64,000 bases of DNA from a virus. The position numbers and the translations under genes are program-made. The notes beneath the pieces were generated by a model that saw only the letters and a program-made list of their open reading frames with translations, was not told the DNA's origin and made no database searches. Positions 27,439 through 28,130 of this stretch are shown in pieces (the first letter of the stretch is position 1; every line of letters begins with the position of its first letter). Location of the stretch: UHGV virus genome UHGV-0287696; one strand, written 5' to 3'.

Positions 27439-28029
27439 ATGGCCGAACGTTGGACTAAAGAAGGTATTATTGCTTCGAAAACAGATTTAGAAGGCGGGTA
27501 CGTAAACGACCCTGACGATAAAGGTGGGGAAACCTGTCACGGTGTAACACTAACAACTGCGCGCGAATACGGGTATAAAGGAAGAATGAAGGATCTGACC
27601 CGTGCGCAAGCGTTTGATATTTACGATCGCGGTTGGTGGAAGAAACTTAAACTCGATGAGATTTTAGCTATCTCACCCTTACTCGCAGACCGGATGTTTG
27701 ATTTTGCTATTAACTCTGGCCGCGTTAACTGCGTGAAATCGTTACAACGTATTCTCAACGTTTTAAATAACGAAGGGAAACTTTACGCAGATATTGACAC
27801 CGACGGCGGTATGGGACCTAAAACGCTAGGTGCCCTGAATGCTTATCTGAATTACCGTAAAGACGAAGGATTAGGCATCTTAATCTTTGCCTTAATCTCA
27901 CACCAGGTAACTTACTACACAGAAATCTCCGAAAAGCGTAAGAAGAATGAAAAATTCGCTTACGGCTGGTACGCACGTGTGTTCAGGGAAATGCCGGATT
28001 ATGTGGCGAAGGCGGGGTTAGTAAAATGA
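27439..28029 (+). CDS. endolysin, glycoside hydrolase family 108-like lysozyme with peptidoglycan-binding C-terminus
   Basis: 196 aa; N-terminal EGGYVNDPDDKGGETCHGVT matches the GH108 catalytic signature; C-terminal GGMGPKTLGALNAYL resembles a PG-binding domain. Confidence 0.75.
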   Translation: MAERWTKEGIIASKTDLEGGYVNDPDDKGGETCHGVTLTTAREYGYKGRMKDLTRAQAFDIYDRGWWKKLKLDEILAISPLLADRMFDFAINSGRVNCVKSLQRILNVLNNEGKLYADIDTDGGMGPKTLGALNAYLNYRKDEGLGILIFALISHQVTYYTEISEKRKKNEKFAYGWYARVFREMPDYVAKAGLVK

Positions 28030-28130
28030 ACTGGTTTGCTAAACTCTTAGCGTTATTGTGGAAAGCGTTAACGTCTGGGCGGAAACGTAAAGACGAAAAG
28101 CGTGGATACGAATTTTTCTGGTTTCTATAA
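28026..28130 (+). CDS. small overlapping ORF, possible lysis-associated membrane peptide
   Basis: 34 aa MNWFAKLLALLWKALTSGRKRKDEKRGYEFFWFL; ATG overlaps the endolysin stop (ATGA); amphipathic and basic; absent from the ORF track (below 60 aa). Confidence 0.3.
   Translation: MNWFAKLLALLWKALTSGRKRKDEKRGYEFFWFL

Follow-up and report, generated by a model that had tools for sequence, protein, structure and literature searches.

The 64,000-nucleotide (nt) stretch of UHGV virus genome UHGV-0287696 analysed here (the window) contains, between the genes of an endolysin and of a DUF1353 protein, an open reading frame (ORF) of 34 codons that is almost certainly a real protein-coding gene. Judging by sequence profile and gene order, its product is an orthologue of a family of cationic helical peptides of 33-37 amino acids (aa) found in SPN3US-like and Erwinia jumbo phages. 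The peptide is likely to be a membrane-active lysis accessory of some kind; it probably helps wall- and lipid-degrading enzymes to break the host envelope. The source of the DNA is a jumbo phage known from metagenomes. The gene is located as follows:

28026-28130, + strand: gene of the 34-aa peptide, 34 codons and stop, ATG start

The translation of the ORF is MNWFAKLLALLWKALTSGRKRKDEKRGYEFFWFL. The peptide ATG (28026-28028) overlaps the endolysin TGA (28027-28029) as ATGA, just as the original prediction of this ORF had stated, and the frame contains no earlier start codon downstream of the preceding in-frame stop.

Purifying selection at the amino-acid level is seen in two clades. The window was compared with five IMG/VR contigs of 107-225 kb, whose endolysins are 89-96% identical to that of the window. 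The 34-codon ORF is present in all five contigs; the 15 variable columns across the six sequences are split 3:2:10 over codon positions 1, 2 and 3, and the summed pairwise ratio of non-synonymous to synonymous polymorphism (pN/pS) is 0.079 in frame versus 0.87 and 1.03 in the other frames. The endolysin gives a value of 0.065 in the same comparison. In the Seoulvirus/Erskinevirus clade, the first 25 codons of the orthologues have a pN/pS of 0.23 in frame versus 0.91 and 1.80 off-frame. The peptide cluster comprises 39 distinct members; the 15 variants that were read are all exactly 34 aa long, with scattered substitutions. The original prediction named conservation of the frame in related phages as a check, and the lack of a translation signal as a ground for abandoning the peptide. 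The frame is conserved, down to about 26-35% peptide identity, and signals of translation are present: the start/stop overlap recurs in every relative, and the start codon is preceded by a Shine-Dalgarno-like (SD-like) site:

28008-28016, + strand: SD-like sequence GAAGGCGGG, 9 nt upstream of the peptide ATG, within the 3' end of the endolysin gene

The duplex of this site with the 3' end of 16S rRNA has an energy of -7.7 kcal/mol; the corresponding sites of the endolysin and DUF1353 genes give -8.6 and -7.8 kcal/mol.

That there is no functional peptide here, the ORF being a chance frame, an RNA element or a spacer that relays ribosomes to the DUF1353 gene, is scarcely credible and already largely refuted. 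The shortness of the ORF, the absence of a database family of known function and the fact that some annotation pipelines skip the orthologue speak for such a reading. The chance ORF falls because of the selection, the constant length, the start overlap, the SD-like site and the absence of an RNA explanation; length and motifs are kept across the whole range of identity given above, and the opposite strand has no ORF of at least 25 aa at this locus. An RNA element in place of a gene was rejected, as Rfam has no family match inside the ORF and the stability of the RNA fold is unremarkable (z = -1.35). A -1 frameshift fusing the peptide to the endolysin was also rejected, because the slippery site is not conserved (A_AAA_T in the window and in Erskinevirus, C_AAA in SPN3US, C_AAG in SPAsTU and T_AAG in pEa_SNUABM_29), while the start codon, ATG or GTG, is kept everywhere.

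Searches of Pfam, PHROGs, NCBIfam and the PDB with the window peptide gave no match; against the PHROG models hmmscan found nothing even at E <= 10, and a HMMER scan of 1.84 billion representatives recovered only the cluster of the peptide itself. By megablast, the locus matched no phage genome either, and the conserved genes are only about 73% identical at the nucleotide level to Seoulvirus; the phage is thus a lineage of its own. Its endolysin shares 59-66% identity with the counterparts in Certrevirus, in Erwinia jumbo phages and in SPN3US-like Salmonella phages. The distant orthologues of the peptide belong to phrog_25143 (PHROG annotation 'unknown function'), with Asesino gp172, Stratton gp173 and phiEaH2 gp076, plus an SPN3US orthologue lacking annotation. 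A profile built from six distant orthologues picked out the window ORF as the sole match among 1835 six-frame segments (E=4e-4, filters off); it is this profile of our own, together with synteny, that links the window peptide to the phrog_25143 family.

The orthologues follow the pattern MK(Q/T/S)NWF..LM(K/R)A..(R)AL..A.RRKR. The window peptide is 26-35% identical to them, with M, N, W, F, L7, A14 and L15 invariant. The phrog_25143 peptides resemble it in size (33-37 aa from the conserved start), in the overlap of their start with the endolysin stop, in their position upstream of the DUF1353 gene, and in the NWF motif, the helix with basic residues on one face, the A-L pair and the RRKR/RKRK cluster. 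Asesino gp172, for example, is an annotated 34-aa gene with the same 4-nt overlap with the endolysin. The overlap is ATGA in the window, the IMG/VR relatives, SPN3US, Asesino, Stratton and phiEaH2, and GTGA in SPAsTU and pEa_SNUABM_29. The family differs from the window clade in its hydrophilic tail, which contrasts with the YEFFWFL of the window clade; in Seoulvirus, moreover, the orthologue (peptide A) is followed by two further mini-ORFs, B and C, both missing in the window clade. The peptide ATG of Erskinevirus and SPN3US is preceded, at a distance of 2-3 codons, by an in-frame GTG (MLKMK.. and MQMK..; L010 (phiEaH2) 1492-1608 and L001 (SPN3US) 2839-2946); this recalls the dual-start motif of lambda S, and the window clade has no such start.

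A degenerate-motif scan of IMG/VR returned the known clades only and no further lineages. The one other recurrent match, a 133-aa, weakly holin-like IMG/VR protein starting with MNWF, was treated as probable chance and not as a relative, most of its likeness having been forced by the search pattern. This multi-transmembrane protein (L054 4977-5378; also in L059, L064, L067 and L068) has the N-terminus MNWFERFMTHIGNALSTA, resembling that of the window peptide; its weak Phage_holin_4_1 match (E=0.004) lies elsewhere in the protein.

The original prediction called the ORF unannotated, which does not hold for public databases. They list the identical peptide under DAG31051.1 and DAO31796.1, both entered as hypothetical; 148 public contigs encode exactly this peptide and 397 a one-residue variant, and metagenome gene finders call the gene at this position in contigs of about 225 kb. 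The orthologue, on the other hand, is absent from the SPN3US RefSeq and SPLA1a annotations while being called in other genomes, so annotation pipelines are inconsistent on such genes. The deposition of the peptide as hypothetical, and the grouping of its distant orthologues in a PHROG with no assigned function, are thus already known; the selection evidence, the link to the phrog_25143 family, the recurring mini-ORF slot described below and the reading of the operon as muramidase, peptide, phospholipase A2 (PLA2) and peptidase are new. In the literature, nothing specific was found on the peptide or on the lysis genes of SPN3US-like phages, and these lysis genes are essentially uncharted.

The peptide can be divided into three segments:

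28029-28079, + strand: residues 2-18, NWFAKLLALLWKALTSG, hydrophobic, weakly amphipathic helix bearing the invariant NWF, L and A-L
28080-28103, + strand: residues 19-26, RKRKDEKR, polybasic centre, counterpart of RRKR or RKQR in the orthologues
28107-28127, + strand: residues 28-34, YEFFWFL, aromatic hydrophobic tail, nearly invariant in the variants read

The strongly basic centre of the original prediction is borne out by the RKRKDEKR segment; the net charge of the whole peptide is +5. The YEFFWFL tail is restricted to the window clade and is absent from the Seoulvirus and Erskinevirus orthologues. An AlphaFold2 (AF2) model, made from the single sequence with no alignment, is one helix spanning residues 4-33 (pLDDT 74.5). 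K6 and K13 share one face of this helix (20-40 degrees); the in-helix basic residues of the orthologues occupy differing positions on the same face (340-20 degrees). On the Wimley-White scales, interfacial binding is predicted to be strong at both ends of the peptide, with energies of about -4.4 kcal/mol (N-terminal helix) and -4.7 kcal/mol (tail). In charge, hydrophobicity and hydrophobic moment, the peptide comes close to melittin.

The peptide gene lies within an operon bounded by terminator-like hairpins, with no terminator-like site between the endolysin and peptide genes:

27382-27402, + strand: terminator-like hairpin and T-run at the upstream operon boundary, 9-bp stem with 6 GC pairs, then CTTTTCTTTT
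27439-28029, + strand: endolysin, GH108 muramidase with PG_binding_3, 196 aa (Pfam PF05838 E=1e-23, PF09374 E=1.6e-16)
28146-28811, + strand: DUF1353 protein, 221 aa (Pfam PF07087 E=1.5e-14, 53.8 bits versus a cutoff of 22.5)
28789-29304, + strand: M15-like peptidoglycan peptidase, 171 aa, overlapping the end of the DUF1353 gene (phrog_894 'endolysin' E=3.6e-28)
29388-29415, both strands: bidirectional terminator-like hairpin closing the operon, 12-bp stem and T-run

A sub-threshold Rfam match at 27382-27402 is the terminator-like hairpin itself. The endolysin belongs to phrog_315 'endolysin' and matches NCBIfam NF040573 'holin-associated N-acetylmuramidase' with E=8e-20, a score short of the curated cutoff. 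Its sequence shows neither a signal peptide nor a SAR segment, and no signal peptide is visible in the DUF1353 and M15-like sequences. The DUF1353 gene begins 15 nt after the peptide gene. Its product has H87, D88 and D118 invariant in eight phage homologues. The DUF1353 family includes TtaP, an experimentally shown PLA2 with a His/Asp dyad and an adjacent Asp (PMC11525133). The connection of the phage protein to PLA2 comes from Pfam family membership and the literature; D118 would be the catalytic counterpart of D85 of TtaP, and a sequence search of the PDB with a profile of DUF1353 homologues brought up no PLA2. The PHROG label of this gene, 'tail assembly chaperone' (phrog_1158), is probably wrong. 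The M15-like protein has H-x6-D and H-x-D motifs, read by eye, and no Pfam match at E <= 0.01; its homologue in Phobos is annotated as peptidase M15A.

The SPN3US counterparts of the muramidase (gp156) and the DUF1353 protein (gp157) are not mentioned among the virion proteins in the main texts searched, where gp158, the M15-like protein, is reported in the virion in trace amounts only; a lysis role is favoured over a virion role for this reason. The hairpin at 29388-29415 is common to the operon and to a convergent lipoprotein-like gene (29423-29902, - strand; MLKRFLIAMVGVFSLAGC, lipobox LAGC), which belongs to phrog_9559 (PHROG annotation 'unknown function') and has an orthologue in SPN3US gp159. 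This lipoprotein is not a u-spanin, since it has no C-terminal transmembrane domain (TMD). The operon is flanked by DUF7941 'virion structural protein' paralogues at 26039-27377 and 30041-31182 (+ strand), so that the lysis-type module sits within a block of late structural paralogues.

In all jumbo lineages with GH108 beside DUF1353, one to three tiny hydrophobic or cationic ORFs lie between the two genes. The slot is of the type A, A+B, A+B+C, BC or C', depending on the lineage:

Window clade: peptide A only
Erskinevirus: A and the overlapping B (..DSGFFKLLRAIFxRRV)
Seoulvirus: A, B and a 30-aa TMD peptide C
Machinavirus: a 38-52-aa peptide joining the N-terminus of B to a TMD; one member matches phrog_26367
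Wellington/Kwan-like contigs: a 33-37-aa TMD peptide

Peptide B is 27-50 aa long, has the motif DSGFFK(L/M)LRAIFxRRV, starts inside the 3' end of A in another frame and looks like a paralogue of the helix of A. Peptide C has 30 aa, with an acidic N-terminus, a TMD and a start overlapping the stop of B. B and C lie at 2921-3073 and 3037-3129 in L001 (SPN3US) and at 1577-1672 and 1669-1761 in L011 (SPAsTU); peptide B of Asesino is at 3158-3241 in L002. The annotation of both peptides is inconsistent between genomes. An origin of the window peptide as a fusion of peptide A with the GFFKLL core of B via a 16-nt deletion was left as speculation: the reading frames would add up, but the nucleotides match only weakly (about 46%, judged by eye), and an alignment that stays in frame is just as possible.

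In Certrevirus, a similar muramidase occurs with neither DUF1353 nor a mini-ORF. DUF1353, together with M15, is found in Derbicusvirus and in a Vibrio jumbo phage, both of which lack GH108 and mini-ORFs. The gene order in Derbicusvirus is a DUF4376-type gene (so named from the Machinavirus and SPN3US annotations), DUF1353 and M15A, with a gap of 68-71 nt replacing GH108 and the mini-ORFs (L045 (CR5) 1429-1501 and L046 (Phobos) 1432-1501). As GH108 and the peptides are missing together in Derbicusvirus, the muramidase and the peptide or peptides behave as one unit before the DUF1353-M15 pair. The gene orders compared suggest that a muramidase-peptide module was gained, lost or moved as a unit. 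In an unrelated phage contig (L035), the slot overlapping the GH108 stop holds an 85-aa ORF whose product looks holin-like, with two TMDs placed by eye and unscored.

The proposal of a membrane-active lysis accessory, made in the original prediction, fits the operon context and the physico-chemistry of the peptide, while no characterised family matches it. Most likely, the peptide would act as an accessory either on the inner membrane, like a holin, or on the outer membrane, like a disruptin; in its logic the peptide resembles both disruptins and holins, and it fits neither definition fully. For an inner-membrane, holin-like mechanism the chance is appreciable, if somewhat less than even. Here, we infer translational coupling, membrane binding, permeabilisation and a role in lysis in the following order. 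Ribosomes ending the endolysin would reinitiate at the overlapping ATG, and the peptide would thus be made with the muramidase late in infection. Because it has no signal sequence, it would first meet the inner face of the cytoplasmic membrane; there, the hydrophobic helix and the aromatic tail may bind the inner leaflet, with the RKRK centre contacting anionic lipid head groups. On accumulation, the peptide would perturb or permeabilise the cytoplasmic membrane like a melittin-type peptide, and the signal-less muramidase, the PLA2-like DUF1353 protein and the M15-like peptidase would gain access to their substrates. In this way, the peptide would serve the endolysin module as a partner or trigger resembling a holin.

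The likeness to holins lies in the coupling to a signal-less muramidase of the 'holin-associated' type, in the layout of a hydrophobic helix followed by a charged segment, and in the holin-like look of the ORF that takes this slot in L035. The window peptide differs from holins in having no unambiguous TMD and no match to a holin family. In the jumbo phage phiKZ, gp142 was judged by the criteria of a holin, namely timed lethal hole formation with release of the endolysin, and triggering by energy poisons (PMC12894885).

Several observations weigh against the membrane-active, holin-like interpretation. No Pfam, PHROG or NCBIfam holin family matches the peptide. With its 34 aa, it has roughly half the length of the smallest holins known. 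The best 19-residue octanol energy is -1.19 kcal/mol with two lysines inside, which is borderline for membrane spanning (melittin has -4.2 kcal/mol and the TMD mini-ORFs of relatives about -9 kcal/mol), and a Kyte-Doolittle (KD)-based scan calls no TMD in the peptide. The amphipathic character ascribed earlier to the N-terminal half stands as regards the two lysines on one face, but the hydrophobic moment of residues 1-18 in the window copy, 0.45, is reached by 1772 of 5000 shuffled sequences; the orthologues have moments of 0.53-0.61. The association of tiny ORFs with GH108 is not phylogenetically independent, since all cases are within one phage clade. Finally, the complete Seoulvirus genome of SPLA1a encodes small TMD proteins at 7229-7471, 182880-183572 and 187391-187657, the last near an SLT transglycosylase, any of which could possibly be the true holin.

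These small membrane proteins also bear on the view that the peptide regulates or tethers the endolysin, as a timing factor, an antiholin-like inhibitor or a membrane anchor, with no membrane damage, or that its role is unrelated to lysis. Other small membrane proteins of the related genome could supply the holin function, the start/stop overlap favours co-production with the endolysin, and the lysis cassettes of jumbo phages can hold regulators such as phiKZ gp143 (PMC12894885). A role of this kind is nonetheless quite unlikely: what is conserved in the peptide is a set of hydrophobic residues, a single basic face and a polybasic cluster, the sequence gives no hint of a protein-binding rather than a lipid-binding surface, and other lineages fill the slot with plain TMD mini-proteins.

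Alternatively, after degradation of the wall, the cationic peptide might destabilise the outer membrane, replacing or assisting spanins in the manner of the disruptin gp28 of coliphage phiKT. Gp28 is a hydrophilic protein of 56 aa with a charge of +7 and three basic clusters; it is membrane-associated, has no signal sequence or TMD, and its function was shown by complementation, phiKT having no spanins (10.1101/515445). Holt et al. screened for disruptins among products of fewer than 80 aa with a net charge of at least +4 and a predicted helix, encoded in a lysis gene cluster (10.1101/515445). Their experimental criteria for a disruptin are complementation of a lambda Rz/Rz1 defect, association with membranes and killing of bacteria by the synthetic peptide. 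The window peptide has these published candidate features: it is 34 aa long, carries a charge of +5, is modelled by AF2 as one helix and is encoded in the endolysin operon. Like gp28, it is a small cationic, predicted helical peptide from a lysis cluster with no signal sequence or unambiguous TMD, and membrane association is predicted for it as well. It is, however, mostly hydrophobic and far more so than gp28; the two were compared by description and have no known sequence relationship, and the authors report no homologues of gp28.

Part of the case for a disruptin-like action comes from the typhoid-toxin islet of Salmonella, whose TtsA we take to be a GH108-type muramidase. TtsA is similar to prophage muramidases, and for toxin to leave the periplasm in a TtsA-dependent manner, an agent that perturbs the outer membrane, for instance a cationic peptide, has to be added (PMC11525133). 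The families of TtsA and TtaP are related to the products of the two genes flanking the window peptide; the islet differs in that the two genes are in different transcription units and no peptide gene has been reported, and TtaP has 125 aa versus 221 aa in the phage DUF1353 protein.

No holin or spanin is named in the PHROG-based annotation of the SPLA1a genome, a point in favour of a disruptin-like substitute. The genome does contain, at 190947-191945, a probable separated two-component spanin lacking annotation (L050 40947-41456 and 41466-41945). Its first member (190947-191456, 169 aa) has a TMD followed by coiled-coil-like and Pro-rich stretches, identified by eye; the second (191466-191945) is a 159-aa outer-membrane lipoprotein with the lipobox LLTGC. 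The distance from the pair to the GH108 operon is 43 kb. A tblastn search with this pair found no homologue in the 64-kb window; going by synteny, the pair would lie just outside it. SPN3US is absent from the text and supplements of the spanin census (PMC6139136). The 34-aa peptide itself has no cysteine, lipobox or periplasmic domain and thus lacks the marks of a spanin. Unlike phiKT, then, the window phage has a relative that probably encodes a spanin pair, so the clade is unlikely to lack spanins, and a role of the peptide as a spanin substitute becomes less likely. Taken as a whole, the disruptin-like action is unlikely.

The position of the peptide gene 15 nt before a DUF1353 gene with the invariant H, D and D also allows for a melittin-like trigger: packing defects made by the peptide would switch on a latent DUF1353 PLA2, and the resulting lysolipids and fatty acids would dissolve the membrane. 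Melittin is known to stimulate PLA2. Its layout is like that of the window peptide, with a KRKR-type cluster after a hydrophobic helix of about 18-20 residues that contains few lysines; the physico-chemical values named above are similar, and both peptides are encoded or secreted with a PLA2-type enzyme. The comparison is by analogy only: there is no homology, the PDB search was empty, and melittin is secreted and acts from outside, whereas the window peptide is made inside the target cell. TtaP causes no overt damage to intact cells; its authors' conclusion is that some form of activation is required (PMC11525133). In several lineages of the mini-ORF slot, the last tiny ORF overlaps the DUF1353 start codon. 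Derbicusvirus and the Vibrio jumbo phage, on the other hand, carry DUF1353 with no tiny peptide upstream, so the PLA2-like protein does not need the peptide; the putative nature of the D118/D85 equivalence and the failure of the DUF1353 profile to find a PLA2 in the PDB also count against the trigger, which is very unlikely.

Equally doubtful is the view of muramidase, cationic peptide and DUF1353 PLA2 as a venom-like lysis module, with the peptide as the missing activator of the PLA2. If true, it would mean that envelope breakdown is partly enzymatic hydrolysis of lipids and not purely the action of holins and spanins. The module would then probably be the setting from which TtsA and TtaP of the typhoid-toxin islet descend, and would explain both the need of TtsA for an external cationic peptide and the inactivity of TtaP in intact cells. 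In any case, the position of the peptide between a muramidase and a TtaP-type phospholipase offers a hypothesis for how DUF1353 phospholipases are switched on, a question left open by the authors of the TtaP study (PMC11525133). As a membrane-active lysis accessory, the 34-aa peptide would be a candidate new small lysis effector; it is synthetically accessible and may have antimicrobial-peptide properties.

Two other groups of small genes with signal-like segments occur in the window. The ATGA-overlapping genes at 8909-9133 and 9130-9330 (+ strand) encode proteins of 74 and 66 aa, each with an N-terminal TMD or signal-like segment and a short Cys-containing tail; neither protein has a PHROG match, and they could be holin/antiholin-like or something else. 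At 59010-61212 (+ strand), five tandem genes encode proteins of 129-161 aa with N-terminal signal-like segments, some of them mutually paralogous; their PHROGs are phrog_5248, 8968, 9424 and 3429, all annotated as 'unknown function'.

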